The translations under genes were made by a program, and so were the position numbers. The notes beneath the pieces are model-generated. The model ran no database searches, was not told where the DNA came from, and worked only from the letters and a program-made list of their open reading frames with translations. Below, piece by piece: positions 10,387 through 43,532 of a stretch of 64,000 bases of DNA; position 1 is the stretch's first letter, and each line of letters starts with the position of its first letter. This DNA is from a virus (lineage: Duplodnaviria > Caudoviricetes), in IMG/VR virus record IMGVR_UViG_3300028591_000079, positions 1 to 64,000 of that record; one strand, given 5' to 3'.

Positions 10387-10394
10387 ATAATAAG

Positions 10395-10408
10395 TTCTTA
10401 TCCTCGAA
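10395..10408 (+). repeat. Shufflon recombination site 4
   Basis: Exact TTCTTATCCTCGAA. Confidence 0.92.
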
Positions 10409-26990: not shown

Positions 26991-26997
26991 AGTTCTA
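26991..26997 (+). promoter_or_regulatory. AGTTCTA putative late-promoter motif heading the radical-SAM operon
   Basis: Motif followed by GGGAG RBS and ATG 27019. Confidence 0.6.
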
Positions 26998-27018
26998 TAT
27001 AGGGAGTAATAGTGTATC

Positions 27019-27963
27019 ATGAAGAAGATTTACGAGTTTCTACTTTGGAATAATTGTGGTAATAACTGTAGTTTCTGTCATCAAAGAATGCATGAAAGAA
27101 AAATTGATGATAAAATACTAACCCCAAAGGAACAAGTTGAGTCTTTAAAGTTATGTAAAAAGTTTTTGGACACAGAGTTTGAAAACGGAAATCATATACT
27201 GTTAGTTGGCGGTGAAATATTTGATGTAAGGGATGAAGAAGTAAAGAAATCGTTGAAGTGGTTATTGTTGCGAGTTGTGGAAAAAATGACACTGAACGAA
27301 ATTGAACTTTTATATCTAAACACCAACTTATTATATGAAGATACTGGTTTATTGCATTGGTTTTTAGATGTTATAGAAGCCAATAGACTGTTTGATAGAT
27401 TACACTTTACGACCTCTTATGATATAGTTGGTCGTTTTTGCGTAAAATCAGAGTCTTTGTTTTATAAAAATCTAAAAACTCTAACAGACAAATATAAAGA
27501 CATACACATAATCGTAAACACCATATTAACAAAAGAAGCGTGTAAAAGAATATGTGAAGATCGTTTTGGTGCTGATTTTTTACTTGATTATCTAAAAAAA
27601 CAAGGAAAAGAAAATCACACACTAAAAGAATGGGCAGATTATTTTAGAGTTCAGATCAATACAATACCATATATAATGCTGAACTATGATAAGGCACCAG
27701 AAGCACCAACACGTAATGAGGTTTTTGATACATTAATACACTTAGATACAATTATTCCTGGGTACCTAAAACAATATGCAGAAAACATAGCTCTAACTCA
27801 GGAAAAATTACTTTACGAATACCACAAGAAAGATGGAGGATATGTTTTTTGTTCTTCAAATATGTCTGATTGTGGTCATTCTGTAAATTTCAAATTATCT
27901 TTTGCGGATAGTGACAAATGCTTTCCGTGCGAGATAAAAAAGTTGCTAAAATATAATAAATAA
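27019..27963 (+). CDS. Radical SAM protein (paralog 1)
   Basis: WNNCGNNCSFC (CxxxCxxC), LVGGE, TSYDIVGRF, C-terminal CGHS...DSDKCFPC. Confidence 0.85.
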   Translation: MKKIYEFLLWNNCGNNCSFCHQRMHERKIDDKILTPKEQVESLKLCKKFLDTEFENGNHILLVGGEIFDVRDEEVKKSLKWLLLRVVEKMTLNEIELLYLNTNLLYEDTGLLHWFLDVIEANRLFDRLHFTTSYDIVGRFCVKSESLFYKNLKTLTDKYKDIHIIVNTILTKEACKRICEDRFGADFLLDYLKKQGKENHTLKEWADYFRVQINTIPYIMLNYDKAPEAPTRNEVFDTLIHLDTIIPGYLKQYAENIALTQEKLLYEYHKKDGGYVFCSSNMSDCGHSVNFKLSFADSDKCFPCEIKKLLKYNK

Positions 27964-27968
27964 AAAGG

Positions 27969-28703
27969 ATGAAAAATATGGAACCTATTGAATTGACTTT
28001 TGATAATAATACTGTTATTGAAGATTTATTTAAAGATCTTGAAAATGGAAAACAGCGCATTATTAATGTGCAAGAAAATACTAGCTTAGAAAAAATAAAA
28101 GAATTATTGAAAAGTGTTTCTGGGTTGCCAAATTCTGCTTTTAAGTTTTTCGATATTAGGTTAAAAGCACTATCATCCGAAGATAAAGCGGAAATCTTGA
28201 AATTCGTAATCAAAGAAGAATTGTGTATTACAAATCTTATTGAAACCATTGTATTATTAATCAACTCAAGCAACAATTATAATCAAGAATTTTTCAACAA
28301 TCCAGTTGTGTTTTTCTCTTCTGTTGTTGATTATCTTGATGTTTGTGATGCATTAGAAACAGAAATAAACACAGTTAGAGAAAAAGTTGCATTTTACTTT
28401 TTAGCAACAATGAAATCTTATGTGAATCACCCAAGATTTGTTTTGAACGAATCTGGTAATTTTGAAACAATGCCAATGATGTATGAATGCATTTTGATGT
28501 TGTTGGACTTCTTCAATATTTCATTTATATTAAATACTCCAAACATCAATATTCCAAGTTTTTCAGAAATTCCAAACAATATGAAATCAGAAATCAAATT
28601 ATTAGATTTGTGGACTGATAAACAAAAATTTGTAGTATCAACATTGTCAGAATTATCAAAAACAATCAATGAAAAATTAGCAGCCGAAGTAGAGGACAAA
28701 TAA
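27969..28703 (+). CDS. Hypothetical protein within the rSAM operon
   Basis: RBS, contiguous ORF, no recognised motif. Confidence 0.65.
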   Translation: MKNMEPIELTFDNNTVIEDLFKDLENGKQRIINVQENTSLEKIKELLKSVSGLPNSAFKFFDIRLKALSSEDKAEILKFVIKEELCITNLIETIVLLINSSNNYNQEFFNNPVVFFSSVVDYLDVCDALETEINTVREKVAFYFLATMKSYVNHPRFVLNESGNFETMPMMYECILMLLDFFNISFILNTPNINIPSFSEIPNNMKSEIKLLDLWTDKQKFVVSTLSELSKTINEKLAAEVEDK

Positions 28704-29221
28704 TGACAGATAAAGAAAAACAGCAATTTTTCAATGGTCTTGTTGAAAAAATGGGGACAACACCTCATTGGACTGCAACTGGGTTTATTTTGCCTGACGG
28801 CACAATGTTGAATTTTTCTAACACAAACATATATCCAGATCCAGCTGTTGCTGTATATACCCACGAGGATCTTGAAAAATTCTTTGGTTATAAACAAGAA
28901 GATGTTTTAAAATATGGTGGAATAAGGGTCGGATACTGTGATGCAAATGACAAACCATTTATTCAAATATTGTTCAAAGATTGTGAACCAACGGATTTTC
29001 AGTGGACAAAAATAGACGAATTATTGCATACCGACACTGGAGAATTAGATGTTGAAGCAAATACAATTTTAAATAATGACTCTACAGCTTTTTACAAAAA
29101 GTATGTAGCATCAACAAACACCATAGATGACATAAAAGATGATTTAGATGCCTATTTAGATGGTGATACAACTAATTTGGGTACATATAGTGAAAAATTA
29201 GGAATAAAAGATTCAAACTAA
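28703..29221 (+). CDS. Conserved phage hypothetical protein (GFILPDG motif)
   Basis: TGFILPDGTML...HEDL...GGIRV. Confidence 0.6.
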   Translation: MTDKEKQQFFNGLVEKMGTTPHWTATGFILPDGTMLNFSNTNIYPDPAVAVYTHEDLEKFFGYKQEDVLKYGGIRVGYCDANDKPFIQILFKDCEPTDFQWTKIDELLHTDTGELDVEANTILNNDSTAFYKKYVASTNTIDDIKDDLDAYLDGDTTNLGTYSEKLGIKDSN

Positions 29222-29232
29222 GAAGGAATGTT

Positions 29233-29895
29233 ATGGCAAATTATACGATAACATATGGAACACTAAAACAGCAAGTGATCAATTTGATAAAAGCAAATGT
29301 GCAAAATATTGATCAACTAAATGTTCCAAATACATTAAAAACACCATATGCATATACAATTGCGGGTGGTGGAACCCAAAACGGTTGTCAACTGGTTGCT
29401 ACAGGACTTGATTTACCAATACAATATTCTACGGAACAATTAGAAACTGATTTTAATAATTTTTGTACAACATATGGTATAAACAGTAAATCATCAGATG
29501 TCGTAACCACAAATGGACTGTTGAATTTTTATAATATAGTGGCAAATTTTGTTGCTTCTCGTGTTGTAGAATATACAGGTCTTCATGCCGCAGGAGGAGA
29601 ACAAAGAGTTATGATTTATACACAAACAAGAGGCGCTGGACAATATCCAACTCCACACACACTTGTTTCTGCGGATGATACTGAATTGGCTATTGCAAAT
29701 TCTACTGGCGATGTCGTAAATACATTAACAACAATTATGAAGAAAAATGTATCAGTAAACAATCCTGCACACTACGAAATTAGCATTTGGAGTTGTTCAT
29801 GTTCTTCATCTTCATCTAGTAGTTCATCATCAAGTTCATCATCATCAAGTTCTAGCTCAAGTATATTTATAGCATATCAAAATATCGAGGTATAA
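29233..29895 (+). CDS. Poly-Ser-tailed protein 1 (candidate modified precursor/virion protein)
   Basis: Ends SCSC-S20-IFIAYQNIEV; paralog of the next gene (ITYGxLKxxV, FNxxxxxxG, LLNFYN). Confidence 0.8.
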   Translation: MANYTITYGTLKQQVINLIKANVQNIDQLNVPNTLKTPYAYTIAGGGTQNGCQLVATGLDLPIQYSTEQLETDFNNFCTTYGINSKSSDVVTTNGLLNFYNIVANFVASRVVEYTGLHAAGGEQRVMIYTQTRGAGQYPTPHTLVSADDTELAIANSTGDVVNTLTTIMKKNVSVNNPAHYEISIWSCSCSSSSSSSSSSSSSSSSSSSSIFIAYQNIEV

Positions 29896-29897
29896 TT

Positions 29898-30554
29898 ATG
29901 GCAATTGCAACAAATAATATTATTACATATGGCGACCTAAAAGATTTGGTTTTATCAAAAATAAATTCGCTTGTGAAAAATGTTGGTGGTTATGCCAGTG
30001 GTGTTCCAAACGAAATGAAACCTGGTTTTACACAAACAATAACAAGAGATAGGTCATCTGTTGTTATAAATGTTGATGCAAACACAATTATTTCAACAGT
30101 TACATCTGCAGAAATTGCAAATCAATTTAATGATTATTTGGTACAAAAAGGTGTTTCTGCTGCTGCAAATACGGTAATGACTGCAACCAGTTTATTGAAT
30201 TTCTATAATGTTGCTGCTGCATTTATTACGACAAAAGTTGTTATGGTTACATCATATTTATCTTCAACAACGGTGCCAATGTATAATAAAAACTCAACGA
30301 ATTGGCCAACAGTTCCAGTTATTTCGGCAATTGATCCGGATGCAATACCTACCACTATAGATAATCAAAATGTTCAAAACGCCATGCAATTTTTGGAAAT
30401 GTTTGATAGATCCAGATTGAGTGCTCATATTATGGCTTACACATATAATTATACTTGTTCTAGTTCATCATCCTCATCTTCTAGTTCAAGTTCTTCGTCA
30501 AGTTCTTCAAGTTCATCATCAAGCTCATTTATTGCTTATATGACCCTTGAATAA
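29898..30554 (+). CDS. Poly-Ser-tailed protein 2
   Basis: Ends TC-S23-FIAYMTLE; mixed Ser codons. Confidence 0.8.
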   Translation: MAIATNNIITYGDLKDLVLSKINSLVKNVGGYASGVPNEMKPGFTQTITRDRSSVVINVDANTIISTVTSAEIANQFNDYLVQKGVSAAANTVMTATSLLNFYNVAAAFITTKVVMVTSYLSSTTVPMYNKNSTNWPTVPVISAIDPDAIPTTIDNQNVQNAMQFLEMFDRSRLSAHIMAYTYNYTCSSSSSSSSSSSSSSSSSSSSSSSFIAYMTLE

Positions 30555-30579
30555 AAAACAAAAAAGAAAGGAGATGTTT

Positions 30580-31560
30580 ATGGGTAAGATGGTACAATAT
30601 GGTTTGTGGCCAGATTGCAGTAATAATTGTGATTTTTGTCTTTTAGAGCATCATGGTAGAAAAACATCGAAAGAAGACAAAATATTACAGCTTGATGATA
30701 CTATTGCAAATATCAAAACAATAGATTGGATTAATGAATTTTCAGATGGTATTTCGCTTTTGGGTGGCGAGATTTATTTTATGCGTGATCCAGATCTTCA
30801 AGCAAAATTTTTAGAAGTCATTGATACGATTATAGAGTATGTGTTGTTACCAAATAAGAATAATGGAAATATGAAATGTCGTTATTCTACTGTAACAAAC
30901 GGAATTTATGATCGTACTTTTTTATTTCAAGTATTAGATAAAATAGTTGAAGCTGTTGGTATTCATTTTGTAGATATAAATTTCTCTTATGATTTGAAAT
31001 ATCGTTTTCATACAGAAGCCGCTCGTCAATTGTGTATAGATAATATTAATGCCGTGATTCAAAAATATAATTATGAATTAGGTGTGCAGATGATATTAAC
31101 ACAAAATTTGATAGATTCTGTGAAAAGTGGTGAGTTTGATATAGACAAATTTGAGAATGAAACATGCCCAGGAAGTAAGTTGTGCTTATTATATCCTCAT
31201 CCTGTTCATGGTGGTAAAGTTCTTCCAGGATTTCAATTTGCAAGACAACCATTTTTGAGTTTTTTATTAGAAGAGTATCCAAAGCACAATAGGTTGATTA
31301 GAGATTTTATTTTTTCACTTTATCATTCTGGTATTTATAAATATTCTGGCATGTATTGGAAACGACATATTGGGGATGATGGATATTTTTATGAGAAAGG
31401 TGAAACATCGCAACCACCAATTTTATCAGATGGAAAAGAAGTATTGATGGATTGTGGGCATAGTGTGTTGTATAAATGTTATTCTGATTCTGACAAGTGC
31501 TGTTTATGTGATGTAAAGAATATATTTAAGCAAGAAATATTGGAGTTGAATAATGAGTAG
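30580..31560 (+). CDS. Radical SAM protein (paralog 2)
   Basis: WPDCSNNCDFC, LLGGE, STVTNG, SYDLKYRF, CGHSVLYKCYSDSDKCCLC; AAGGAG RBS before 30580. Confidence 0.85.
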   Translation: MGKMVQYGLWPDCSNNCDFCLLEHHGRKTSKEDKILQLDDTIANIKTIDWINEFSDGISLLGGEIYFMRDPDLQAKFLEVIDTIIEYVLLPNKNNGNMKCRYSTVTNGIYDRTFLFQVLDKIVEAVGIHFVDINFSYDLKYRFHTEAARQLCIDNINAVIQKYNYELGVQMILTQNLIDSVKSGEFDIDKFENETCPGSKLCLLYPHPVHGGKVLPGFQFARQPFLSFLLEEYPKHNRLIRDFIFSLYHSGIYKYSGMYWKRHIGDDGYFYEKGETSQPPILSDGKEVLMDCGHSVLYKCYSDSDKCCLCDVKNIFKQEILELNNE

Positions 31561-32479
31561 AGTTCAATATGGTATTTGGCCTAATTGTTGTAATGCTTGT
31601 GATTTTTGTTTGAATCTACGAGAGGCTTTTTATGGTGTAGAAGAACAGATAAACATGATTAAGAACGTTAGACATAATATCAGACTTCTTGATTGGAAAA
31701 ACACTTATTATCATGGTATTTCTTTGTTGGGTGGCGAATTATATTTTGTAAAAGATAAAGGTATACAAGAAGAATTTTTAGGTCTTATAGATGACATTAT
31801 AGAATTAGTTGTTTGTAAAGAAAATGGTCCACTATGTAAATATTCAACCGTTACTAATGGACTTTATGATCCAGAGTTTTTATTCAAAGTATTAGATAAA
31901 TTTGAAGAAAAAGGGTTGATGAGTGCTGTTGATTTGAATTTCAGTTATGATTTGAAGTATAGATTTAAAACAGAAGAAAGAAAAAAATTGTGTGAAGATA
32001 ATATAGTAAAGACGGTTGAAAGGTATCCAGATCTAAAAGTGAATGTACAAATGATTTTAACACAGCACCTTATCAATGAATACAATAAAAATAACAACAT
32101 ATTGAAAGAATTAGAAGAAAAACTGCATATTGAATCTATAAATCTTCTTTTCCCACACAAACACAACACTGGAAAGACTCTTGTTGATTTTTATTTGAAG
32201 AGAAGTGATTTTTTGAAGTTTTTATATGAGCTAAATAATACAGATCATAAAAAAGTAAGACAGTTTGTGGATAGTATTGTAAATGTGGATGATAATGCTT
32301 TAATTGGACTTTATAGAAGAGATAAAATTGAAAAAAATGAAATAAACATAGACCAATTACCAATGAAGGAAGATAATAAAACCGTAATAAATCCAAAATG
32401 CGGACACTCAACATTATATCAGTGCTATGAAGACTCTGATAAGTGTATGTTTTGTGATATAAGAAAGTTTCAGTGCTAA
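31553..32479 (+). CDS. Radical SAM protein (paralog 3)
   Basis: WPNCCNACDFC, LLGGE, CGHSTLYQCYEDSDKCMFC. Confidence 0.85.
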   Translation: MSRVQYGIWPNCCNACDFCLNLREAFYGVEEQINMIKNVRHNIRLLDWKNTYYHGISLLGGELYFVKDKGIQEEFLGLIDDIIELVVCKENGPLCKYSTVTNGLYDPEFLFKVLDKFEEKGLMSAVDLNFSYDLKYRFKTEERKKLCEDNIVKTVERYPDLKVNVQMILTQHLINEYNKNNNILKELEEKLHIESINLLFPHKHNTGKTLVDFYLKRSDFLKFLYELNNTDHKKVRQFVDSIVNVDDNALIGLYRRDKIEKNEINIDQLPMKEDNKTVINPKCGHSTLYQCYEDSDKCMFCDIRKFQC

Positions 32480-32499
32480 TCATCTAAAAGGAGGAGGAA

Positions 32500-33630
32500 A
32501 TGATACCACTATTTAAAGTTTTTATGGCAGATTCAGTAGATAAGCCATTATTAGAAACACTTCATTCTGGTTTTATTGGTGAAGGTCCAAAAGTACTAGA
32601 ATTTGAAGAAACACTTAAAAAACATCTTAAAACAGAAAATGTATTAACTACTAATTCTGGTACTTCTGCATTATATCTTATTTATCATATGATAAAACAT
32701 CCAAAAACTTCACATGTGTTGCGAAAAACAATTATAACAACACCCATAACTTGTACGGCAACAAATAATCCAATTGTTCTAAATGATATAGACATTGCTT
32801 GGGCTGATGTTGATCCAATTACGGGAAACATTACTCCAGAATCGTTACTGGAAGCGCTGATGATAGAGCCAAATGGATATGCTTACAACACCCAGGGTGT
32901 ATCTATAGTTCATTGGGGTGGAAATCCTTGTGATATAGAGGATATAGCTAAAATATCACATTCTTATGGTCTAAAACTTATAGAAGATGGTGCGCATTCA
33001 TTTGGTATGGAATATAATGGAAAACCTTTTGGATATTATTCAGATTTTGCTATGCACTCATTTCAAGCAATAAAGCATATAACTGCGGGGGATGGTGGTT
33101 GTTTAATATGTAAAAATAAGGATGATTATGAAAGAGCCAAGCTATTAAGATGGTATGGTATAGATAGAGAAATAAAAGAAGGCATAGATCTAAGATGCGA
33201 ATTAGACATTGCTGAAGCTGGATATAAATTTCACATGAATGATTTAGCGGCAACAATTGGTAATGAAAATTTTAAATATCTACCACAAATATTACAAAAG
33301 CATAGAGATAATGCAAAATTTTATGACAAAGCATTTGAGGGAAAAGTAAAATATGCACCAGAAAATCCAAATGGTAAATCAGCTTATTGGTTATATACTA
33401 TTCATGCCGAAAATAGAGATGAATTGATGCAAAAACTAAAAGAAAAAGGTATTATGGCATCAAAGGTACACTCAAGAAATGACACTCATAGTATGTTTAA
33501 GAGTTTTCAAAGACCATTGCCAGGAGTAGAAGAATTCAATCGTACCCATCTTTGTATTCCTGTTGGTTGGTGGGTTACAGAAGAAGATCGTGAATATATT
33601 GCAGAACAGGTGATAAAATATGCAAGATAA
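32500..33630 (+). CDS. DegT/DnrJ/EryC1/StrS PLP-dependent sugar aminotransferase
   Basis: NSGTSAL, ADVDP, VHWGG, IEDGAHSFG, SFQAIKHITAGDGG, GYKFHMND. Confidence 0.9.
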   Translation: MIPLFKVFMADSVDKPLLETLHSGFIGEGPKVLEFEETLKKHLKTENVLTTNSGTSALYLIYHMIKHPKTSHVLRKTIITTPITCTATNNPIVLNDIDIAWADVDPITGNITPESLLEALMIEPNGYAYNTQGVSIVHWGGNPCDIEDIAKISHSYGLKLIEDGAHSFGMEYNGKPFGYYSDFAMHSFQAIKHITAGDGGCLICKNKDDYERAKLLRWYGIDREIKEGIDLRCELDIAEAGYKFHMNDLAATIGNENFKYLPQILQKHRDNAKFYDKAFEGKVKYAPENPNGKSAYWLYTIHAENRDELMQKLKEKGIMASKVHSRNDTHSMFKSFQRPLPGVEEFNRTHLCIPVGWWVTEEDREYIAEQVIKYAR

Positions 33631-34459
33631 ACCAAAACTTTCAATTGTAGCCGGTATTTATTTTCCTCTAGAGATTTGTTTTAGAAGGTTTTTGGATGCG
33701 TGTCTTAGTCAAACAATAAAAGATGTTGAATTTATATTTCTATTAGATTCGCCTGAAGATAAACAATCAAGAAATATATTAGAAGAGTATAAAGACCTAT
33801 TGGATAACCGCTTTATAATTGTAGAAAATGAAAAAAATTTAGGGGTTGTTGATACATATTTGAAAGGTTGTGAGTTATCTAAAAGTGATTGTGTTATGAT
33901 AGTTGACTCAGATGATTTTTTTGATAATGACCTAATTGAAAAGATGTATAATTATTTTATTGAGCATGGTTTAGATTTTTTAGGCCCTAGAATATTGATG
34001 AGTTATCTTGGTGAATTAGATGTTTTTTATGCCTTAAACAATAACGATGATCCAACAGATACAGGAATAATGTTTAGAAAGAAGATTTTGGGTGAATATG
34101 AGGAATTTAGAAAATATATCAATTACACACTTATAAATACAATAAAAAAGACCAATTACAAAGTTGATGTTTTACCGTTAGATTTTGAAAGTTTTTATTA
34201 TTATACAGTCACCAATAGAAGTGCAACAAGTAGTTTTATATTACAAGACAACGGTGAAGTTCCCAAAAGCAAAGACTATCAATATTATAAAGATGGTGTG
34301 ATTAGATTTATAGAGACATTTTTGAGCAATACAACAAATAAAAAGATCAAATTTGAAGATTATACATTAGATGAATTGAAAGATATGGCAAAAAAGTATC
34401 TTGATTTAGACAATTTATTAGAAAACGACCTAACCTGTGAAGAGCTAAAAAAAATCTGA
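33620..34459 (+). CDS. GT2-family glycosyltransferase
   Basis: LSIV...CLSQT...ENEKNLG...IVDSDDF (DxD). Confidence 0.8.
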   Translation: MQDKPKLSIVAGIYFPLEICFRRFLDACLSQTIKDVEFIFLLDSPEDKQSRNILEEYKDLLDNRFIIVENEKNLGVVDTYLKGCELSKSDCVMIVDSDDFFDNDLIEKMYNYFIEHGLDFLGPRILMSYLGELDVFYALNNNDDPTDTGIMFRKKILGEYEEFRKYINYTLINTIKKTNYKVDVLPLDFESFYYYTVTNRSATSSFILQDNGEVPKSKDYQYYKDGVIRFIETFLSNTTNKKIKFEDYTLDELKDMAKKYLDLDNLLENDLTCEELKKI

Positions 34460-34812
34460 TGAATGAATATTATAATATCTTAAAAGAAAATCATAAAAAC
34501 ATAAAATACCATCCTGGTTTTGATATGCTAGTTATTAAGTGTACAAATATAAAAGAACAATTGACAGGCCTAAAAAAGATTGTAAAAACGCTCATATTTG
34601 GTATTCAATCTAAAAAAATAAACAAAAATTCGATTATAATAGAGATTAATGGTGAAGATTTTATTAAAGATGATATTATAATACTACTAAACATTATGAA
34701 ACTCACTAAAACGTCTCATTATTTCAATATAGTGGTCAAAAACGGATTAGATAGTAGGATAGAGTTTATAAGATGCAAATATAGAGGAGTAAAAATAAAT
34801 GAAGGGATATAA
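34459..34812 (+). CDS. Hypothetical protein coupled to GT2 (related to 36045..36527)
   Basis: TGATG overlap; LKKIVKTLIFGIQSKKI vs LKKLINMTLYMIQTKKL. Confidence 0.55.
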   Translation: MNEYYNILKENHKNIKYHPGFDMLVIKCTNIKEQLTGLKKIVKTLIFGIQSKKINKNSIIIEINGEDFIKDDIIILLNIMKLTKTSHYFNIVVKNGLDSRIEFIRCKYRGVKINEGI

Positions 34813-35209
34813 AGTAATAGATTTTGAAGTGCACCCAGATGAGAGAGGAAAATTGACTGCTGTATCTGAAATGAAAGAGATACCGTTTGAGATAAAAAGA
34901 ATATACTACACATGGGATATGCCAAAAGAAGCAATTAGGGGAGGACATGCACACAAGGTTTTAGATGAAGTAATGATTTGTTTGCGTGGTTCTTGTGATT
35001 TTGTGTTAGATGATGGAAAAGAAAAAATTACAATCACACTAGACAGACCAAACAAGGGATTATATGTGTCAGCTCATTTATGGAGACATTTTACTAATTT
35101 TTCTCCAGACTGCGTTGTTATGTTGATTGCCTCAGACTATTTTCACCCAGAAGATCATGTAAAAGATTATAATGAGTTTTTAAAGCTAAGAGCAGAAGAT
35201 GAAGAATAA
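34799..35209 (+). CDS. fdtA: FdtA/QdtA-family dTDP-4-keto-6-deoxyhexose 3,4-ketoisomerase (cupin)
   Basis: DERGKL...IPFEIKRIYY...RGGHAHK...GSCDFVLDDG...LDRPNKGLYV...W...FSPDCV...AS. Confidence 0.88.
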   Translation: MKGYKVIDFEVHPDERGKLTAVSEMKEIPFEIKRIYYTWDMPKEAIRGGHAHKVLDEVMICLRGSCDFVLDDGKEKITITLDRPNKGLYVSAHLWRHFTNFSPDCVVMLIASDYFHPEDHVKDYNEFLKLRAEDEE

Positions 35210-36044
35210 TATAAAAATTTCTGTTATTACTGGAGTTTATCATCCGAATGAGTCTTTATTTCGGAAGTTTTTATATTCCTGCTTAAATCAAACTCTAGAT
35301 GGAATACAATTTATTATGGTTTTTGATGATCCAGAAGATAAAAATTCTAGAAGCATAATAAAAGAACACCAAGAACAAATAGATAATAACAAAAATACTT
35401 TTACGATACTAGAAAATAATAAAAACTTGGGAATATATGAAACACAAATGAAAGGATTGAAAAACGCATTGGGTGAATATATTGTGTTTTTTGATGATGA
35501 TGATTTTTTTGATTTTGAATATTTAGAGATAATGTACAAATATGCTAAAGAGTTTGATGCAAATGTCATAAAAGGCTGGGCATTGACTCATTATTTTGGA
35601 GATATAGATTTGAATTTTACTTTTATATGTCAACACGAAAATATATTCAATGAAGACGATTGGTTATATATGTACAAAAAAGATTTCTTCGTTAATTATT
35701 TCTATTATTCTAAAATGTACACTTCTGATACGGCAATAACAAACAGATCAAAAGAAAAAGAAATAATATTACAAATTCCATTTTATGAGGGTGTATTTTA
35801 TCATTATGTTAGGCACTGTGATAATACATCTTTTGTTCCAATTACAGAAGAAAATTTTAGCATCAGCAACAGTGAGGGTGTGGAAGATCAAAGAAGAATA
35901 TATGAAAGGTTTATGAAGGATGTAAAAGAAGAGTTTGATATAGAAAAAACAAACAAGCAAAAACTAACGACTATTTTACAAAATCATTTAAGACTAGATA
36001 ATACATCAAACGACTATAATTTTGAAAGACTGAAAGGATTATAA
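35199..36044 (+). CDS. GT2-family glycosyltransferase (paralog of 33620)
   Basis: ISVI...CLNQT...ENNKNLG...GEYIVFFDDDDF. Confidence 0.82.
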   Translation: MKNNIKISVITGVYHPNESLFRKFLYSCLNQTLDGIQFIMVFDDPEDKNSRSIIKEHQEQIDNNKNTFTILENNKNLGIYETQMKGLKNALGEYIVFFDDDDFFDFEYLEIMYKYAKEFDANVIKGWALTHYFGDIDLNFTFICQHENIFNEDDWLYMYKKDFFVNYFYYSKMYTSDTAITNRSKEKEIILQIPFYEGVFYHYVRHCDNTSFVPITEENFSISNSEGVEDQRRIYERFMKDVKEEFDIEKTNKQKLTTILQNHLRLDNTSNDYNFERLKGL

Positions 36045-36527
36045 ATGAACATAGGTATAGATATTTATAAAAACAGTCTTCATTTATCTAATCAACAGGC
36101 TATAAGTATAATAAAAAGAGCTCGTTATATGTTATCTGGACTGCAAACACAAAAAGAAGATATTATTGGATTTAATTTTGGTGGCATATTTACAAAAGAA
36201 GAAAAAGTATTGTTAGAGCTAAAAAAACTAATCAATATGACACTATACATGATACAAACAAAAAAATTAGATGGGATAGTATTATATATAGATGAATTGA
36301 TTGATAAAGAAGAATTTAGAAATATAATAGATCTTGCTAAATTTTCTGGTATAACAAACAGATTAAAAATAAAAACTAAAAGCATTAAAGATAAAGATTT
36401 TTTAATGTATTATCCTGAATTAAAAGTTGAAATTATTGAAAAAGATGATACAATATTCAGTAAAAGATATGTATTAGATCAAAAGGAAGAGTTTATTTGC
36501 AAATTATATGAAAATGGAGAAAAATAA
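36045..36527 (+). CDS. Hypothetical protein, possibly a Cys-less rSAM-derived fragment
   Basis: QKEDIIGFNFGGIF resembles QKYDFEGFGIIGGEFF of paralog 7. Confidence 0.5.
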   Translation: MNIGIDIYKNSLHLSNQQAISIIKRARYMLSGLQTQKEDIIGFNFGGIFTKEEKVLLELKKLINMTLYMIQTKKLDGIVLYIDELIDKEEFRNIIDLAKFSGITNRLKIKTKSIKDKDFLMYYPELKVEIIEKDDTIFSKRYVLDQKEEFICKLYENGEK

Positions 36528-37474
36528 TGCAGTTAGATAGTAGGTTTTTGCAATTAGTTTTATGGGTAGATTGTAATAGTCATTGTGCTTTTTGTTTGAA
36601 TCGAAGAGGATTAATGAATAAAGACTTTCACGAAGATAAGATAGAAAATATACATAAAGCCTTAGAAATAGTAAAAAACATAAAACAGGGACAGTATGAT
36701 TTTGTTGGTATTATCGGTGGCGAATTTTTTCAAGGACAAATAACGGAAGAAGTTGCACCACATTATCAAGAACTAGTAGATGAAATAAAAAGCAAAATTG
36801 ATAAAGGATATATAAAAAAATTGTTTGTGGCCAGTTCTTTGATGGGTCCGGATAATTATAATGAGTTTCAGAAATATTTTAGTGCATTTGATAGGTCTGA
36901 AATATTAATCTGTACATCATATAATACTTGGGGACAGTTTGGTTTTTTCCCTGAATCTAATTGGCAAGAAAACTACAAAAAATTTACAGATAATGGGTAC
37001 CAACTGCACATTGAAATTATAGCATCAGAAGCAAATCTAAATGCAATACTTGAAGGAAAATTGAATTTACTTCCTTGGGTTAGAAACAATATTAGAATAG
37101 ACTTCCTTAGACCAATTGATTTCCTAAATGAACCAAAACAAAAATTTCCATGCTTCTTTCCAAAACGAGAAACATTCATAAAATTCATGATGTTCTTAGA
37201 AGTCAATTTCCCGCAAATGATGGATGACTTCATGAGTCTAAAACAAAGAGCTTCGTTGCTACATAACTTTACATTTGATCAAACAGTAGAAAGAAAAGAA
37301 GAGTTTAACGAAGGTGAAGGTTATATAATGGATTGTGGACACTCTAGTTTATTTAAGGCATATATAGATTCAGATCATTGTATGGCTTGTGATATTTTGG
37401 CTTTTTATAAACGAAACAAATATAGAACAGTTGACAAAGATTTACCACAGGAGAAGAAAGATGGCAATGAATAA
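36527..37474 (+). CDS. Radical SAM protein (paralog 4)
   Basis: WVDCNSHCAFC, IIGGEFFQGQ, CTSYNT, CGHSSLFKAYIDSDHCMAC. Confidence 0.85.
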   Translation: MQLDSRFLQLVLWVDCNSHCAFCLNRRGLMNKDFHEDKIENIHKALEIVKNIKQGQYDFVGIIGGEFFQGQITEEVAPHYQELVDEIKSKIDKGYIKKLFVASSLMGPDNYNEFQKYFSAFDRSEILICTSYNTWGQFGFFPESNWQENYKKFTDNGYQLHIEIIASEANLNAILEGKLNLLPWVRNNIRIDFLRPIDFLNEPKQKFPCFFPKRETFIKFMMFLEVNFPQMMDDFMSLKQRASLLHNFTFDQTVERKEEFNEGEGYIMDCGHSSLFKAYIDSDHCMACDILAFYKRNKYRTVDKDLPQEKKDGNE

Positions 37475-38459
37475 AAGAATAATACAATATGAAGTTTGGA
37501 AGGAGTGCCATAATCACTGTAAATTTTGTTTTTTGAAAGATGATATACTTCACACTCCTGATCATGTAAAATTGGGTGGTATAAAAAACGCCATAAATCA
37601 AATCACAGATGATATAAACAATAAAAGAATAGATGGTGTAGGTATTATTGGTGGAGATTTTTGGCAAGGTGAAATTACAACAGAAGAAATAAGAACAGAA
37701 TTTTTCAAACTTATAGATTTATGTTTCAATTATCTAAAAAACGGAGACATAAGTGAAGTTTGGTTATCTGCAACATTAACATTAGGAGCTCAAGAAGATT
37801 TATATAGGGCTCTTGATATGTATAATGAAATGATTCCAGATGAAGAAAAAGAAGATAAAAGACTTTGGATCTGCACTTCTTATGATACAATTGGAAGGTT
37901 TCATATACCAGCAATGTTAGAAAACTGGGAATATCACATGAAGAATATTGGCGAAAAGTATCCAAAAGTCTTTAAAAACACATCATTTATTATAACCAAC
38001 GATCTAGTAAAGAAAACATTATCTGGCGAATTTGATTTTATAAAGTTTGAAGAAGAATTTGGAACCAATGTATATATGAAAACCCCATCACACATTTACG
38101 AAGATTGGGAAGAAGGTAAGAAGAAATTTCAAGAGACGGTGGGTGATTTCTTTTTAGAGCGCAAACCAACTATTGAATTCTTACAAAAGCTAAACGAGGT
38201 GTCTCCAGAGTTGTTGAACAAAATAATGAACAATGACTTAAGGGCTAATGTTTTGGTTGGACACAGTAATGATGGGAATTTTGATGTAATGATAAGAGAC
38301 CAAGAAGACCATCATAAAAATATTAGTGTGGCAACTGGCGGAGAAAACACTGAAAAAGCTCAAATAATGGCCTGTGGACACGAAAAACAGTATAAGTGCT
38401 ATATAGACTCAGACAAGTGTTTTATGTGCGATCTACAACGATTATTCAAGGTATTATAG
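37461..38459 (+). CDS. Radical SAM protein (paralog 5)
   Basis: WKECHNHCKFC, IIGGDFWQGE, CTSYDTIGRFH, CGHEKQYKCYIDSDKCFMC; start at 37461 or 37467. Confidence 0.85.
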   Translation: MAMNKRIIQYEVWKECHNHCKFCFLKDDILHTPDHVKLGGIKNAINQITDDINNKRIDGVGIIGGDFWQGEITTEEIRTEFFKLIDLCFNYLKNGDISEVWLSATLTLGAQEDLYRALDMYNEMIPDEEKEDKRLWICTSYDTIGRFHIPAMLENWEYHMKNIGEKYPKVFKNTSFIITNDLVKKTLSGEFDFIKFEEEFGTNVYMKTPSHIYEDWEEGKKKFQETVGDFFLERKPTIEFLQKLNEVSPELLNKIMNNDLRANVLVGHSNDGNFDVMIRDQEDHHKNISVATGGENTEKAQIMACGHEKQYKCYIDSDKCFMCDLQRLFKVL

Positions 38460-38467
38460 GGGGGAAA

Positions 38468-40078
38468 ATGAAAAAATATACTCTATTAGTTGAAGAAGAT
38501 ACAATACATGACAGTGATGTTGTATTGTTAGATGATAAAAAGATATTATGTATACTAGAAAATGAACGTGTAACAAAACATAAGCACGCAGTATATGAAA
38601 AATGTGATGCTATTATAGACTATGTATTGAAACGTTATAATATTGGCAAAGATGAAGTTAATATTGTCAAAGGAATAAATACACAACATAACAGCCATCA
38701 CGAATTACATGCTTTGGCCACATACCTTTCTTCTGGTTATGATAAAGCAAGTATTTTAGTTATAGATGGATATGGAGACCAAGATGATTCTGTGACTTTG
38801 TTTGCAGGGAGAGGTCAAAATATTTACGAATTAAAGAAGTATCACGTAATGTATTCTTTGGGTAATCTTTATAATTGTGCTTCTAGGTTACTCTATGATA
38901 ATGCTGGATATAGTGAAGGTAAGATGATGGGGTTGTCTTGTTGTTCTGAACCTGAATATAGTATACCAAGTCCAATACAATATCATGAAGATGGAACTGT
39001 AGAGTGTATTGCTAAAATAGATGAAAATTGTCCGATAGAAGAAAATATTATGAACTATATAAAGGAACAGTTTTCATATTTGATTGGTAATGATGGCAAT
39101 GTAATGGGTGTTGATATATATAAAGCTAAAATTGCTGCAACTGTTCAATGGTGGTTTACAGAGCAAGTTGTTAATCTGGTCAAATATATCAAAAAGCTAA
39201 ATCCTAACACTGAAAATCTTTGTGTTTGTGGTGGATGTTTTCTAAATTGCGAGACCAATGGAATTATAGACAGACTTGAATTATTCAAAAATATATATTG
39301 TATTCCAGCTCCTGCAGATAATTCAATAGTTTTAGGTAGAGCTCAACAATTTTTGGTAGAAATAGGATCAAAACCACAAACAATAAAAAGTCCATATTGG
39401 GGCCCTGACTCTGATAAAACTTTTGAAGATTTATTGGAAGAATTTAAAATAAAAGAAGTAGATGGTAAATTTAGATCACAAATAACAAATGCTCATGATA
39501 TAAGTAAGTATTCAGAAGATTGGGTTATTGAAAGACTAAAGGCAGATAGGGTTATTTTATGGTTTGATGGTGGTTCTGAATTTGGGCCTCGTGCATTAGG
39601 ACATAGATCGTTTTTAGCCAATCCTGCAACAAATGAAATGTTTTGGAGACTCAGTGTAAAAATCAAAAGTAGAGAAAACTATAGACCACTTGCGCCAATT
39701 ACAACAGATGAGCTATATCCAATGATTTTTGAAGATCCCAATCCAGAAAATCTTACACAATTTATGCTAAAAACAGTAAAAGTAAAAGATGAGTGGAGAT
39801 CTAAACTAAAAGCTGTTACACACATAAATCAAACAGCTCGTCCCCAACGTTTAACTGAAGATGTAAATCCAGTTCTATATTCATTAATAAGCAAATGGTA
39901 TAAAGAATCTGGACTGCCTTGTCTTATAAATACATCTCTAAATCTAAAAGGACAACCATTATTGGAAACATATGACGATTTAAAATCAATTCTTATAAAT
40001 CCTAACATTTTATTGAACAAGTGTAGTGTAGTAATTGATCATAAGTTGTGTTTTGATATTTACGAAGGAGCAGCATAA
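38468..40078 (+). CDS. Carbamoyltransferase (NodU/CmcH/TobZ family)
   Basis: ERVTKHKH, HHELHA, VIDGYGD, EGKMMGL, GGCFLNC, EFGPRALGHRS, RPLAP, TARPQ, INTSLN. Confidence 0.9.
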   Translation: MKKYTLLVEEDTIHDSDVVLLDDKKILCILENERVTKHKHAVYEKCDAIIDYVLKRYNIGKDEVNIVKGINTQHNSHHELHALATYLSSGYDKASILVIDGYGDQDDSVTLFAGRGQNIYELKKYHVMYSLGNLYNCASRLLYDNAGYSEGKMMGLSCCSEPEYSIPSPIQYHEDGTVECIAKIDENCPIEENIMNYIKEQFSYLIGNDGNVMGVDIYKAKIAATVQWWFTEQVVNLVKYIKKLNPNTENLCVCGGCFLNCETNGIIDRLELFKNIYCIPAPADNSIVLGRAQQFLVEIGSKPQTIKSPYWGPDSDKTFEDLLEEFKIKEVDGKFRSQITNAHDISKYSEDWVIERLKADRVILWFDGGSEFGPRALGHRSFLANPATNEMFWRLSVKIKSRENYRPLAPITTDELYPMIFEDPNPENLTQFMLKTVKVKDEWRSKLKAVTHINQTARPQRLTEDVNPVLYSLISKWYKESGLPCLINTSLNLKGQPLLETYDDLKSILINPNILLNKCSVVIDHKLCFDIYEGAA

Positions 40079-42145
40079 ATGACATTTAAAGAGAAGATGG
40101 TAGAATTTTTACAGAACACAGATAAAGATAAAGTTCGTACAAATCTAAACGAAAACAGTATGAGCATATCTATTGGCTGCGACATAAACCATATAGAAGC
40201 TGAAAAAATTCGTACAATGATCAAAAATGCAAATGAGAACTATAAGGTTTGTATTATTCATACTTGTACTGCATATGGACAATTTATAGACTTGACGAAA
40301 GATGTAATCAATTTTGTATCTAAAAATCTTCCAAAGTCATATAGTTTATTTTTGGCTGGTTGTGGGGTAGATACATTTGCAGAAGAATTTCCAAAACTAA
40401 CAATAATATCTGGAAATGCAAAATTTGATGTAGAAAGTTATAATATTCCAAAAGTTGATGATGGCAAATCTGCAGATGCTCCAATGGGAATAATACAAAT
40501 TCAAACAGGATGCAATAATCAATGTTCATACTGCCAATTTCCAATGTTAAAAGGTCACAAATCAATATCTACACCTAAAAAAGAAATATTAGATCTGGTA
40601 AAATATAATATAAATAATGGAGTAAGAGACATAACATTGACAGGAGTAAACATCTGCCAGTATAAAGATCCAAATGATGAAACAGATCTAATTGGACTAC
40701 TAAAATATATAGTCAAAAATAGTATAGGGCTAAATAAACTTTCAATGTATTCGATAGATCCAGCTTATGAAGATATATTTAAATTGATTGATTATATAGA
40801 AGAAGAACCATTGATGAGTAAAGATTTGTATTTGGCAACTCAATCTGGTTCCGATAAGGTGTTGAAAAAAATGAATAGAAGACACAACACTTTTCGCATG
40901 AACTCTATAATAAACTATGTAAAAAATGTAAAACTAAGACATGATTTTATAATTGGGCACCCAGGCGAAGAAGATGAGGATTTTCAACAATCTTTACAAT
41001 TATTAAGAATGACTCAAGAAAACGAAATTGTTGGTGGTATAGCCGAGTTTTATGCGCACGAAGGAACAGCATCTTATTATATGGAAGACAAAGTAGATTC
41101 AAAAATAGCCCATGAAAGATATGAACTCATGACAAATACGCTAAATAAAATAACTAATCTAATAAAACAAGAAGTTAGATGTATTCAATTTGAACTTTGG
41201 CATAATTGTACTAATGAATGCAAATTTTGTTATTTAAATGGTTGTAGAAAGTGCTTTACCGAGGAACAAAAACAAAAATCAATACAAAAAGTTTTAGATA
41301 TATTAGAAACAGATAAAATAAATGGTTTCAATGCTGTTGGGCTTATAGGCGGGGAATTATTTATGGGGCAACAAGGAGATGAAAGAACACAAAACAAATT
41401 TCAAACACTGATACGCAAAATAAAAACATTCCTAGATAAAGATGAAATAAAGGAAGTCTGGTTAACATCCAATCTAATGACGGAAAACATTGGACCACTT
41501 ACGGAGACTTTAGATATATTGATGGAAAAATTGCCTAAATATCAAAGAATCATGTTGTGCACTTCTTATGATACAAAAGGAAGATTCCATACAGAGGCTG
41601 CTTATAAACAATGGTATGATAATTTATTGAGGCTTCGTGAAATTTATCCAAGACTCTGTATTCATATTCAATCTATTTGTACACAAGAATTAGTAAATGA
41701 GTGGTTGACTAACAAAGAAAAGTTTGTAGATTTTATAGATAGAGGCTTCTTAATTGATTTTAAACCACCTGCTACCAATGCTGTAGATTTTATATATAAC
41801 AACACAGGACATGATTCATACAGGGAAAATCTAGAAAAATTTGCAAAAACACAAGACTATAGATACTTAATTGATTCAAGAGAAAAGTTTATGAAATTCT
41901 GGGAGGTTGTATATAATACTTTTCCAGATGGGTTACAAAAACTAAAAGACTTTAATAGTAATCATGTTAAATCTGAGTGTTGTTATTCTGTCCCTTGGAA
42001 TGAATGGTTTGAAAATAGATGGGATAATAATATAGAAAACGCACCTTGTGGACACTGTTGGGATGGTTATTGTTATAAAGATCACCCGGATAGATGTGCC
42101 AAATGCGATGTAGAAAAACTAATAAAAATGTTGGAGAAAAAATAA
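40079..42145 (+). CDS. Fusion of a MiaB/MtaB-like methylthiotransferase-type rSAM with radical SAM paralog 6
   Basis: IGC..N..E/HTC/LAGC (UPF0004-like), QTGCNNQCSYC, QSGSDKVLKKMNR, DFIIGHPGE; second WHNCTNECKFC, IGGE, CTSYDTKGRFH, CGHCWDGYCY...CAKC. Confidence 0.85.
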   Translation: MTFKEKMVEFLQNTDKDKVRTNLNENSMSISIGCDINHIEAEKIRTMIKNANENYKVCIIHTCTAYGQFIDLTKDVINFVSKNLPKSYSLFLAGCGVDTFAEEFPKLTIISGNAKFDVESYNIPKVDDGKSADAPMGIIQIQTGCNNQCSYCQFPMLKGHKSISTPKKEILDLVKYNINNGVRDITLTGVNICQYKDPNDETDLIGLLKYIVKNSIGLNKLSMYSIDPAYEDIFKLIDYIEEEPLMSKDLYLATQSGSDKVLKKMNRRHNTFRMNSIINYVKNVKLRHDFIIGHPGEEDEDFQQSLQLLRMTQENEIVGGIAEFYAHEGTASYYMEDKVDSKIAHERYELMTNTLNKITNLIKQEVRCIQFELWHNCTNECKFCYLNGCRKCFTEEQKQKSIQKVLDILETDKINGFNAVGLIGGELFMGQQGDERTQNKFQTLIRKIKTFLDKDEIKEVWLTSNLMTENIGPLTETLDILMEKLPKYQRIMLCTSYDTKGRFHTEAAYKQWYDNLLRLREIYPRLCIHIQSICTQELVNEWLTNKEKFVDFIDRGFLIDFKPPATNAVDFIYNNTGHDSYRENLEKFAKTQDYRYLIDSREKFMKFWEVVYNTFPDGLQKLKDFNSNHVKSECCYSVPWNEWFENRWDNNIENAPCGHCWDGYCYKDHPDRCAKCDVEKLIKMLEKK

Positions 42146-43104
42146 TGAAAGTTTTGCAAATATCTCCTTGGTCTAATTGTAAAAACCACTGTGCCTTTTG
42201 TTCTCAGCGTGGGGATAGACCTTTTACGATTGAAGAAAGAAAACAGCATTTAGAAGATATATATTCTGAATTTATGGATGGTAGTATTTTTCAGAAGTAT
42301 GATTTTGAAGGTTTTGGTATTATAGGTGGAGAGTTTTTTGCCGGACAGATAGATGGAATAGAGGATGTTTGGTATAAGCTGGTTGAACATTTTGCAGAAC
42401 TATTGAAAACACACAAGCTAAAACAAATATGGATCAATAGTAATCTTATACAGGTCAATATGGAACAAATAGAAAAAACCTTTGAAAAATTTGACTGGGA
42501 TAGTTTGGGTGAAGATCAGAAAGTTTTATTACCAACCTCTTATGACACCAAAGGAAGATTTCATACAGAAGAAGATAAGACTCAATGGTATAAAAATGTG
42601 GAATATATAGCTAAAAAATTTCCAAAACTAGAAGTATATGGAACAGCTATTACCACCCAAGCATTTATTGAAGAATTGCTTGAAGATCGTTTTGTTTATC
42701 CAACTGGTCTTAGAGCTTTAAATTTATTGGTGCCAAGACTAACAGATGCAGATTATTTTAGCCCACAAACACACACAAAAGCGTATCGTGAAATTTTATT
42801 ATCTAAATTGAATGAATATCCTGAGTGGTTTTTCCCAAAGTCTAGAAAACAGTTTGTGCAATTTTTATATAAAGTAAGGGAAGTATTGGGAGATGGTGTG
42901 CTAAGAAACTTTTATGAGGTTGAAAGGCATTCTTCTGATGTGTTTACTTATTTTCCAGCTAAAAACACTTACTTTGTAGATCGTCATACTAAATGTAACT
43001 GTAAAGAAAACATGCCTTGTGGACACCCTTATACGTCTTGTTGTTATTTAGATTCTGATAAATGTTGCCACTGTGATGCTCAAAATATTGTAAAGTTTGA
43101 TTAG
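42145..43104 (+). CDS. Radical SAM protein (paralog 7)
   Basis: WSNCKNHCAFC, IIGGEFFAGQ, TSYDTKGRFH, CGHPYTSCCYLDSDKCCHC; TAATG overlap. Confidence 0.85.
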   Translation: MKVLQISPWSNCKNHCAFCSQRGDRPFTIEERKQHLEDIYSEFMDGSIFQKYDFEGFGIIGGEFFAGQIDGIEDVWYKLVEHFAELLKTHKLKQIWINSNLIQVNMEQIEKTFEKFDWDSLGEDQKVLLPTSYDTKGRFHTEEDKTQWYKNVEYIAKKFPKLEVYGTAITTQAFIEELLEDRFVYPTGLRALNLLVPRLTDADYFSPQTHTKAYREILLSKLNEYPEWFFPKSRKQFVQFLYKVREVLGDGVLRNFYEVERHSSDVFTYFPAKNTYFVDRHTKCNCKENMPCGHPYTSCCYLDSDKCCHCDAQNIVKFD

Positions 43105-43124
43105 TATAACCTAACAAAAAGCAC

Positions 43125-43155
43125 AACCCATTGGATAATTCTGATGGGTTTTTTG
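43125..43155 (+). terminator. Terminator ending the rSAM operon
   Basis: AACCCATT...GATGGGTT-TTTT. Confidence 0.75.
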
Positions 43156-43204: not shown

Positions 43205-43447
43205 ATGTATTTGGTAAAATGCACAGCTGAAGATGGAACATTTGTACTAATCAACCCTAAAGATATACGATGGATAAAACAAAACGAAAAAGATGCTCGA
43301 ATTGAATTTATGAATGGTGAGCAGGTTACTGTGTTATGTGATGATTTTGATGATTTAGAACAAAAAATATTGGATGCAAGTATGCCAGAAATAGATTTAA
43401 AGTCTTTCGATGGTATAAAAGTAATCATTGAAAAAGAGGATAAATAA
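43205..43447 (+). CDS. Small hypothetical protein
   Basis: AGGAG RBS; LINPKDIRWI. Confidence 0.65.
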   Translation: MYLVKCTAEDGTFVLINPKDIRWIKQNEKDARIEFMNGEQVTVLCDDFDDLEQKILDASMPEIDLKSFDGIKVIIEKEDK

Positions 43448-43532
43448 TGAAAGTAATTGGATTATTGCTTTGTGCTATTTTTATTTTTACCATTTTGTAT
43501 CAAGAAATCAAAGGAATAAAAGGAGACAAATA

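Follow-up and report, generated by a model that had tools for sequence, protein, structure and literature searches.

Analysis of a 64,000-nucleotide stretch of DNA from an uncultured gut/rumen phage (the window), the first 64 kb of the IMG/VR virus genome IMGVR_UViG_3300028591_000079 (231,064 bp, estimated to be 96% complete, GC about 30%), identified a single (+)-strand operon at 27019-43104 that encodes seven paralogous radical S-adenosylmethionine (rSAM) domains together with two proteins of about 220 aa, F1a and F1b, each of which carries a long serine run near its C-terminus. We slightly favour the view that this operon is a phage-encoded post-translational modification cassette, with the Ser/Cys tract at the C-terminus of the F1 proteins as its substrate. 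The core of the cassette is a tailed protein, a partner protein (F3) and at least four rSAM paralogs. An earlier reading of the same DNA, made without database searches (the sequence-only reading), had drawn attention to the operon and proposed the poly-Ser proteins as substrates of the rSAM enzymes. Genomic linkage and the fold neighbourhood of the enzymes are consistent with that proposal, while the step from linkage to the tail as substrate is one that we infer.

The serine-tailed proteins and their linkage to the radical-SAM family

F1a (29233-29895, +) consists of an N-terminal domain of 186 aa followed by CSC(S)20 and the end sequence IFIAYQNIEV. Its paralog F1b (29898-30554, +) is 33% identical to it and ends in C(S)23 followed by FIAYMTLE, in agreement with the two paralogous poly-Ser proteins described in the sequence-only reading. 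The serine tracts are encoded by mixed TCN and AGY codons. When the last 42 codons were compared with those of the closest relative (locus L013, a 215-kb Logan contig), 14-16 codons showed synonymous differences and 2-3 amino-acid changes were found, of which two exchange Ser and Cys; both phages have tracts of equal length. Because the differences are mostly synonymous and the tract length is identical, the F1 tail appears to be translated, under strong purifying selection and tolerant of Ser/Cys exchange. The same two observations, with the mixed codon usage, ruled out a slippage artefact or an untranslated repeat as the source of the tract.

A collection of 125 tails showed a median tract length of 22 residues (range 8-43) and a composition of 83% Ser, 14.5% Cys and 2.5% Thr. 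At least one Cys, typically 2-4, occurs in 121 of the 125 tails; these residues are enriched in the first four positions of the tract and have no fixed spacing. The sequence that follows the tract is usually 8 residues long, with the consensus [MFVLI]-F-I-A-Y-M-x-[IL], in which F, I and Y are present in 90-93 of the 125 tails. This octapeptide is more strongly conserved than any part of the N-domain, where few columns are near-invariant.

Homologues of F1 were found only by exhaustive HMMER searching with a profile; a word-based search with F1 returned none. The N-domain profile, from which the tail had been removed, identified 391 cluster representatives when searched against 1.8 billion representatives. 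Among the best 150 of these 391, a run of Ser/Cys(/Thr) no shorter than 8 residues was found near the C-terminus of 90, almost all of which end in a FIAYM-type sequence. The others are for the most part fragments, or tail-less paralogs whose sequence ends exactly where a tail would start. The structural model of F1 (mean predicted local distance difference test score, pLDDT, 78.6) comprises a confident alpha/beta N-domain of about 185 aa and a disordered tail. No credible match to the F1 fold was found (best E 0.35 by Foldseek against the PDB, Z 4.6 in the wide VIA search, E 0.19 in BFVD, and template-modelling scores of at most 0.32 in Atlas).

The partner protein F3 (27969-28703, +) is an acidic, helical protein of 244 aa without a match to a known family in Pfam, PHROG or Atlas. 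Atlas feature searches with F1 and F3 gave scores of at most 0.86, about chance level. The co-folding score of F1 with F3 was 0.01, a value that speaks neither for nor against binding.

The association of these genes was followed in a comparison set formed by the window and 30 other loci, of which four (L010, L013, L014 and L016) were obtained through rSAM homologues and 26 came from IMG/VR through an rSAM alignment of a single orthogroup. A tailed protein was found within 10 kb of the rSAM family in 28 of the 30 other loci, and both exceptions are truncated contigs. Each of the four loci obtained through homologues has one or two proteins of 220-260 aa with a Ser/Cys tract and a FIAY-type end. 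A tailed protein is present in 24 of the 26 IMG/VR loci: 23 were detected with the hidden Markov model (HMM), and L038 has two tailed genes whose N-domains are too diverged for the HMM; in the other two the contig is cut off beside the anchor rSAM gene. F3 adjoins the gene of the tailed protein in 28 of these 30, and the 24 IMG/VR loci with a tailed protein all have F3 within 10 kb. The unit formed by F3, F1 and rSAM genes is present twice within L014 and twice within L035. In minimal cassettes, for example those of L018 and L024, F3 is accompanied by F1 in one or two copies and by four or five rSAM genes. Frequent occurrence of the rSAM family without poly-Ser proteins, which would have spoken against their association, was thus not observed, and a functional link of this family with the tailed proteins is supported.

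The cassette was found in the species genomes (185,579 genomes scanned) on contigs of metagenome-assembled genomes (MAGs) only. These contigs (L044-L052) had been placed in bins of inconsistent taxa, namely Muribaculaceae, Succinivibrionaceae, Bacteroides, Bacilli, Melainabacteria and Erysipelotrichaceae, and three of them are 245-283 kb long. Since the bin taxa are mutually inconsistent and three contigs are of this size, these are probably giant-phage genomes mis-binned with bacteria. A megablast search with the operon and tblastn searches with F1 and two rSAM paralogs found no nucleotide or protein similarity among 50,697 GenBank phage records, so that the system is not known from any cultured phage in that collection. 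Full-text literature searches yielded no description of an rSAM and poly-Ser-tail combination, in line with the sequence-only reading, which had not recognised a described system. The system is probably undescribed, with a pairing that recurs in about 30 other giant phages.

The radical-SAM family and its structural neighbourhood

The rSAM paralogs are encoded, all on the (+) strand, at 27019-27963, 30580-31560, 31553-32479, 36527-37474, 37461-38459 and 42145-43104, and the seventh forms the C-terminal half of the gene at 40079-42145. Pairwise identity among the seven is 24-30%, and they are the only matches to the family in the 231-kb genome. Outside the window, a small radical-SAM-like open reading frame (G000:C1:225787-225963, 174 aa) does not belong to the cassette family; its product may be the activase of an anaerobic ribonucleotide reductase.

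Alignment of the seven paralogs gave as invariant columns W-x2-C-x3-C-x-F-C, GG (followed by E or D), SY-x5-F and CGH...D-x-D-x-C-x2-C, which reproduces the seven domains and the motifs that the sequence-only reading had listed. The CX3CX2C cluster (C29, C33 and C36) is invariant in all seven and also when 102 members of the family are aligned. A C-terminal C-x7-C-x6-C-x2-C arrangement (C292, C300, C307 and C310) is conserved as well, together with His 294; these four Cys residues may bind a single auxiliary cluster, as in Twitch enzymes, or zinc.

At E <= 0.001, the profile of the seven paralogs matched 455 of the candidate proteins that were scored; every one is metagenomic, and many are encoded on contigs of 180-290 kb. 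In a tree of 159 rSAM domains, orthogroup A was represented in 30 loci, a count that is partly by construction, as this orthogroup was the anchor used to fetch the IMG/VR loci. Its copies in the window are the genes at 30580 and 31553, the second being a lineage-specific duplicate. Orthogroup B (the gene at 27019 in the window) was present in 27 loci, and the four other copies of the window, among them those at 36527 and 37461, fell in the fast-evolving remainder of the tree. At least two rSAM orthogroups are ancient.

When the rSAM profile was searched against PDB sequences, the best E was no better than 0.3. The AlphaFold2 model of the gene product at 42145 (pLDDT 89.6) shows a partial TIM barrel and a C-terminal extension that bears the four conserved Cys residues. 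In a structural search against representatives, the model matched solved rSAM enzymes with Z scores of 10-14. The highest scores, Z 12-14, were shared by BlsE, SkfB, anSME (an anaerobic sulfatase-maturating enzyme), viperin, CteB, SuiB, ChlB and MoaA. With anSME, CteB and ChlB the alignment takes in the whole model, and in the case of anSME it covers 268 residues with Z 13.3. The top rank in Foldseek was taken by viperins. The model thus places the family in the SPASM/Twitch neighbourhood, home to peptide maturases and to nucleotide-acting enzymes. The comparison with SPASM/Twitch enzymes and anSME drawn in the sequence-only reading agrees with this, in that the fold of the model falls among peptide maturases that include anSME.

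The phage enzymes resemble the maturases of sactipeptides (SkfB, CteB), ranthipeptides/SCIFF and streptide (SuiB) in having an rSAM core with a Cys-rich C-terminal extension, with fold matches at Z 12-14, and in being encoded next to a gene whose product has a Cys/Ser-rich C-terminal region. They differ in that the candidate substrate is the tail of a folded protein of 220 aa and not a short leader-core peptide; in that four to eight paralogous enzymes are present instead of one, encoded by phages; and in that a recognition domain for peptides made by the ribosome and modified after translation (RiPPs), a protease and an exporter are all missing. Four C-terminal Cys residues are conserved here, in contrast to the seven of the SPASM motif. 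Compared with a RiPP system, the enzymes lie next to the candidate precursor gene (28 of the 30 other loci), whereas the precursor is not short and neither protease nor exporter accompanies it. The idea of a RiPP with a long leader, put forward in the sequence-only reading, is weakened: the N-terminal part of F1 is a folded domain of about 185 aa that also occurs in tail-less paralogs. The system looks more like protein modification than like a released RiPP.

The longest structural alignment, over the whole model, was that to anSME (4k36). Anaerobic sulfatase-maturating enzymes oxidise a Ser or a Cys in the target motif of a folded protein to formylglycine, and this action on either residue matches the Ser/Cys interchange seen in the F1 tails. 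In contrast to sulfatases, the F1 tails contain neither Pro nor Arg, hence no C/S-x-P/A-x-R motif; moreover, sequence similarity to anSME is undetectable, and the two-cluster Cys pattern of SPASM is absent from the phage rSAM proteins.

Sugar, carbamoyl and sulfur enzymes in the operon

The operon contains 18 genes that abut or overlap, two more than the 16 counted in the sequence-only reading; every gene named there was found, namely the MiaB-like fusion, FdtA, DegT, two family 2 glycosyltransferases (GT2s), the NodU-type carbamoyltransferase and the two poly-Ser paralogs. The start codons at 30580, 37461, 38468 and 42145 were set by comparison with the close relative L008/L013, the first and second from orthologs of 326 aa and 332 aa, respectively, in L013. 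The operon ends at an intrinsic-terminator-like hairpin at 43125-43150 (+), with an 11-bp stem followed by a T-run, which bears out the terminator noted before.

Four sugar-related genes are flanked on both sides by rSAM genes and belong to the same operon, which runs from a promoter motif to the terminator: a DegT/DnrJ/EryC1-type sugar aminotransferase dependent on pyridoxal phosphate (32500-33630, +; 230 bits), GT2 gene 1 (33620-34459, +; 68 bits), an FdtA-type 3,4-ketoisomerase of deoxythymidine diphosphate (dTDP)-4-keto-6-deoxyhexose (34799-35209, +; 159 bits) and GT2 gene 2 (35199-36044, +; 69 bits). The NodU/CmcH/TobZ-type carbamoyltransferase is encoded further downstream (38468-40078, +) and matches PF16861 with 163 bits and PF02543 with 95 bits (Carbam_trans_C and Carbam_trans_N domains). 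All these scores are above the curated cut-offs of Pfam.

FdtA was assigned clearly, with PDB entry 2pa7 matched at E 1e-38. The closest solved relatives of the DegT enzyme are 4zwv, 4xau and CalS13 (E about 1e-72), all others being at 1e-34 or weaker; we take these three to be sugar 4-aminotransferases of aminopentose pathways. The sequence-only reading had expected a dTDP-3-amino-3,6-dideoxyhexose. Given the nearest relatives of the DegT enzyme, such a product is plausible but not secure. The pair of an FdtA-type isomerase and a DegT-family aminotransferase resembles the FdtA/FdtB and QdtA/QdtB pathways of S-layer and O-antigen glycans. The window differs from these in that RmlA, RmlB and an N-acyltransferase are absent from it, in that the genes lie inside a phage rSAM operon, and in that its aminotransferase is nearest to the 4zwv/4xau/CalS13 group. 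In L013, the cassette carries an RmlB-like 4,6-dehydratase gene and a gene resembling ornithine/aspartate carbamoyltransferases (7831-8853 and 10001-10927), both of which are missing from the window.

The first 115 residues of the GT2 gene 1 product weakly match GalT1 (5hea; E 2e-8), which we take to be a member of the glycosylation pathway of the serine-rich-repeat protein Fap1; the match is generic and carries little weight. Glycosylated tails are known from streptococcal serine-rich repeat adhesins and from the C-termini of mycobacteriophage capsid and tail-tube proteins. The window shares with them a Ser-rich tract beside glycosyltransferase genes in, as for the mycobacteriophages, a phage setting, and differs in that the sugar genes are optional and the rSAM genes are the constant partner of the tail. 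Within 10 kb of the anchor, sugar genes were found in 3 of the 31 loci only, namely L013, L016 and the window itself. Seven loci have the carbamoyltransferase there, and four of these (L010, L028, L032 and L043) are without sugar genes. From these counts, glycosylation and carbamoylation are lineage-specific additions to the core cassette, and glycosylation with a carbamoylated amino sugar, which the sequence-only reading had proposed in addition to rSAM processing or in its place, does not belong to it. The acceptor of the carbamoyltransferase is not necessarily a sugar, as the enzyme occurs in loci without sugar genes.

The 688-aa fusion protein (40079-42145, +) joins an N-terminal half similar to MiaB/RimO methylthiotransferases to the rSAM-family paralog in its C-terminal half. 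The N-terminal half scored 178 bits against TIGR00089 (MiaB/RimO), under the 251-bit cut-off of that model, and is equally similar to RimO and to MiaB (E about 1e-16). It has an rSAM core and Cys residues in GC, HTC and GC at about residues 34, 62 and 95, corresponding to the three-Cys UPF0004 region, with a weak match to PF00919. The fusion departs from RimO and MiaB in falling below the NCBIfam cut-offs and in having no TRAM domain, in place of which the phage rSAM paralog is found. Methylthiotransferase-like genes are present within 10 kb of the anchor in several loci.

Three further genes of the operon are without an assigned function. F7 (28703-29221, +; 172 aa) also occurs in L013 and L016. 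A small gene follows each GT2 gene within 33620-36527, coding for 117 aa after the first (34459-34812, +) and 160 aa after the second (36045-36527, +), and L016 shows the same pairing (151 aa). Many relatives, among them L010 (6827-10001), L014 (4329-7765) and L016 (8865-9977), also encode a protein of 330-430 aa, in one, two or three paralogous copies, which is missing from the window; by its profile it has a weak match to cysteine desulfurases of the NifS type (4ixo, E 3e-6). TYW3-like proteins are carried by relatives as well.

Proposed modification of the tail and alternative explanations

In the mechanism that we propose, the tract would hang off the folded domain of about 185 aa, with the octapeptide serving as a recognition handle, and several specialised SPASM/Twitch-like rSAM paralogs would act on its C-H bonds by hydrogen abstraction. 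Since Ser and Cys interchange freely in the tract, the chemistry is probably blind to the difference between them; candidate reactions that would treat both residues alike are oxidation at C-beta to formylglycine (as by anSME), epimerisation at C-alpha and thioether formation. The fused MiaB/RimO-like enzyme would insert sulfur, and the carbamoyltransferase would cap hydroxyl or thiol groups. In the lineage of the window, FdtA, DegT and the two GT2s may in addition O-glycosylate the tract, or its product, with an amino-dideoxy sugar. No peptidase or transporter match was found among the 18 operon genes, and as no protease or exporter is encoded, the product would probably stay on the protein. 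That the methylthiotransferase half is as near to RimO, which modifies a protein residue, as to MiaB, and lacks the TRAM domain, also fits a protein target. The type of chemistry, the sugar and carbamoyl acceptors and the biological role are, like the tail as substrate, things that we infer.

Several observations weigh against this reading. Six of the seven paralog domains score below the gathering threshold of Pfam PF04055 (19.8-25.3 bits, or undetected, against 29.5), which in the operon is passed only by the MiaB-like half of the fusion (90 bits); the Pfam matches of the paralogs, all sub-threshold, are to Radical_SAM or Fer4_12. No SPASM domain was detected in the paralogs (Pfam, E <= 0.01), the seven-Cys SPASM motif is absent, and no recognisable RiPP recognition domain is present in the rSAM proteins. 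Nucleotide-acting enzymes (viperin, BlsE and MoaA) are among the tied best fold matches. The sugar genes are rare (3 of 31 loci). The neighbours of the cassette vary from locus to locus, with helicase or SbcC-like genes in some and NUDIX and exoribonuclease genes in the window. A gene of the SAM lyase family (24391-25053, +; PF23780, 39 bits against a 28-bit cut-off) lies 2 kb upstream of the operon, and its product, if co-expressed, would strip the cofactor from the eight radical-SAM enzymes of the operon. The evidence for a modified tail is itself indirect.

Modification of a retained tail was compared with four other explanations. F1 could be a scaffold or carrier, with a small molecule or cofactor built from or on its Ser/Cys tail and then released or passed on, by analogy with pearlins, PQQ (pyrroloquinoline quinone) and mycofactocin, or with the carbamoylation that HypF carries out on the C-terminal Cys of HypE. 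The many distinct radical enzymes together with a carbamoyltransferase, whose family presumably shares YrdC-like and Kae1-like domains with HypF, the sulfur-insertion enzyme and the NifS-like paralogs of relatives make a mixture that resembles cofactor-maturation machinery, and the tail is predicted to be flexible. However, the operon has no protease or other release enzyme, the positions of Cys are not fixed, and neither a swinging arm nor a donor of a single residue would need a tract as long as 8-43 residues, the length of which is the same in the window and L013, the one close pair of orthologs compared. We regard this explanation as rather unlikely.

The promoter motif bears on a second explanation, in which the enzymes hypermodify nucleic acid. 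AGTTCTA(T) occurs in the window at 79, 16257, 16699, 20585 (-), 22419 (-) and 26991, the last copy (26991-26997, +) lying 21 nt upstream of the first gene of the operon. The number of AGTTCTA copies in the window alone is not significant (13 found, 10.5 expected). The whole genome has 62 copies, and 41 of them are intergenic, although intergenic sequence makes up just 8% of the total; most of these lie 6-90 nt upstream of a start codon. Because of this enrichment, AGTTCTA(T) followed by an A/T-rich stretch is a genuine promoter-type regulatory motif. The genome is that of a giant myovirus, with the major head gene at 20670-22229 (-) and tail sheath and head-protease-like genes elsewhere. The motif precedes these three (by 189 nt in the case of the major head gene) and also DNA helicase, repair exonuclease and HNH endonuclease genes. 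An HNH/homing endonuclease gene (19187-20548, -; phrog_3339, E 6e-50) is the immediate downstream neighbour of the major head gene, with a copy of the motif to itself. The motif marks a broad transcription class and not virion genes. The sequence-only reading had taken it as a capsid/tail-type signal that favoured decoration of the virion over DNA hypermodification; the motif is real, while this use of it fails, since replication and nuclease genes share it.

What does speak against modified DNA is gene content. No homologue of thymidylate synthase/hydroxymethylase and none of tRNA-guanine transglycosylase (TGT)/DpdA was found in the 96%-complete genome, and on these grounds the hydroxymethyl-pyrimidine and deazaguanine routes, the two best known to hypermodified phage DNA, were rejected. 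Downstream of the terminator, in the window (43428-45109, +) as in the close relative L008 (11310-12868), lie genes for a NUDIX hydrolase and an Rv2179c-like 3'-5' exoribonuclease.

If phage DNA or tRNA were the substrate, F1 and F3 would be linked structural or accessory proteins. Viperins, the best Foldseek matches, act on cytidine triphosphate; enzymes of the MiaB/MtaB and Kae1/YrdC types are classical modifiers of tRNA A37; and the TYW3-like proteins of relatives, with the NUDIX and exoribonuclease genes after the operon in the window and L008, point in the same direction. Against this, the tailed protein is paired with rSAM genes in every untruncated locus and the F3/F1/rSAM unit is repeated within loci, the methylthiotransferase is without the RNA-binding TRAM domain, the hydroxymethylase and TGT/DpdA enzymes are missing from the genome, and no tRNA genes were found in the window. 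Modification of nucleic acid is accordingly unlikely in our estimate.

A further proposal, that the tail is a metal- or Fe-S (iron-sulfur)-binding or sulfur-donating appendage which services the rSAM enzymes and is not their substrate, draws on the Cys residues present in 121 of 125 tails and enriched at the tract start, on the NifS-like proteins of relatives and on the sulfur-consuming methylthiotransferase of the cassette. We consider it improbable, for the tract is 83% Ser, the tails of the window contain one or two Cys and 4 of the 125 tails none, the Cys spacing is irregular, and the hydrophobic octapeptide would stay unexplained. Improbable too, lastly, is a poly-Ser run that serves a virion or surface protein as no more than a flexible linker, perhaps O-glycosylated (compare cellulase linkers and serine-rich repeat adhesins), beside rSAM enzymes of unrelated metabolism: the two GT2s and the amino-sugar branch inside the window operon, the GalT1 match and a promoter motif common to head and sheath genes would suit it, but 28 of the 31 loci have tail and rSAM genes without sugar genes, the GalT1 match is generic, replication genes are preceded by the same motif, and linkers do not as a rule keep an invariant C-terminal octapeptide or accept scattered Cys.

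If the tail is indeed the substrate of the rSAM enzymes, the cassette would represent a large, conserved and phage-exclusive protein-modification pathway, whose tailed-protein family counts hundreds of cluster representatives, all from uncultured giant phages of gut and rumen. It would also reveal an rSAM lineage, without detectable sequence match to solved structures, acting on an unusually simple substrate, and a new substrate logic for rSAM enzymes, in which the carrier is folded, the core homopolymeric and the handle C-terminal. The cassette of the window is the most elaborate version in the comparison and therefore offers a natural series of enzyme subsets. Why giant phages devote 8-16 kb to decorating one protein would then become a question.

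More tentatively, we see as possible a residue-by-residue conversion of the Ser/Cys tract, by at least four specialised rSAM families, into a non-proteinogenic polymer that is kept on the phage protein. Its products could be poly-formylglycine, stretches of D-residues or a thioether ladder, here also thiomethylated, carbamoylated and glycosylated. If this were true, these phages would make a new class of virus-made hypermodified protein appendage, with roles for example in adsorption, protection of the virion or counter-defence.

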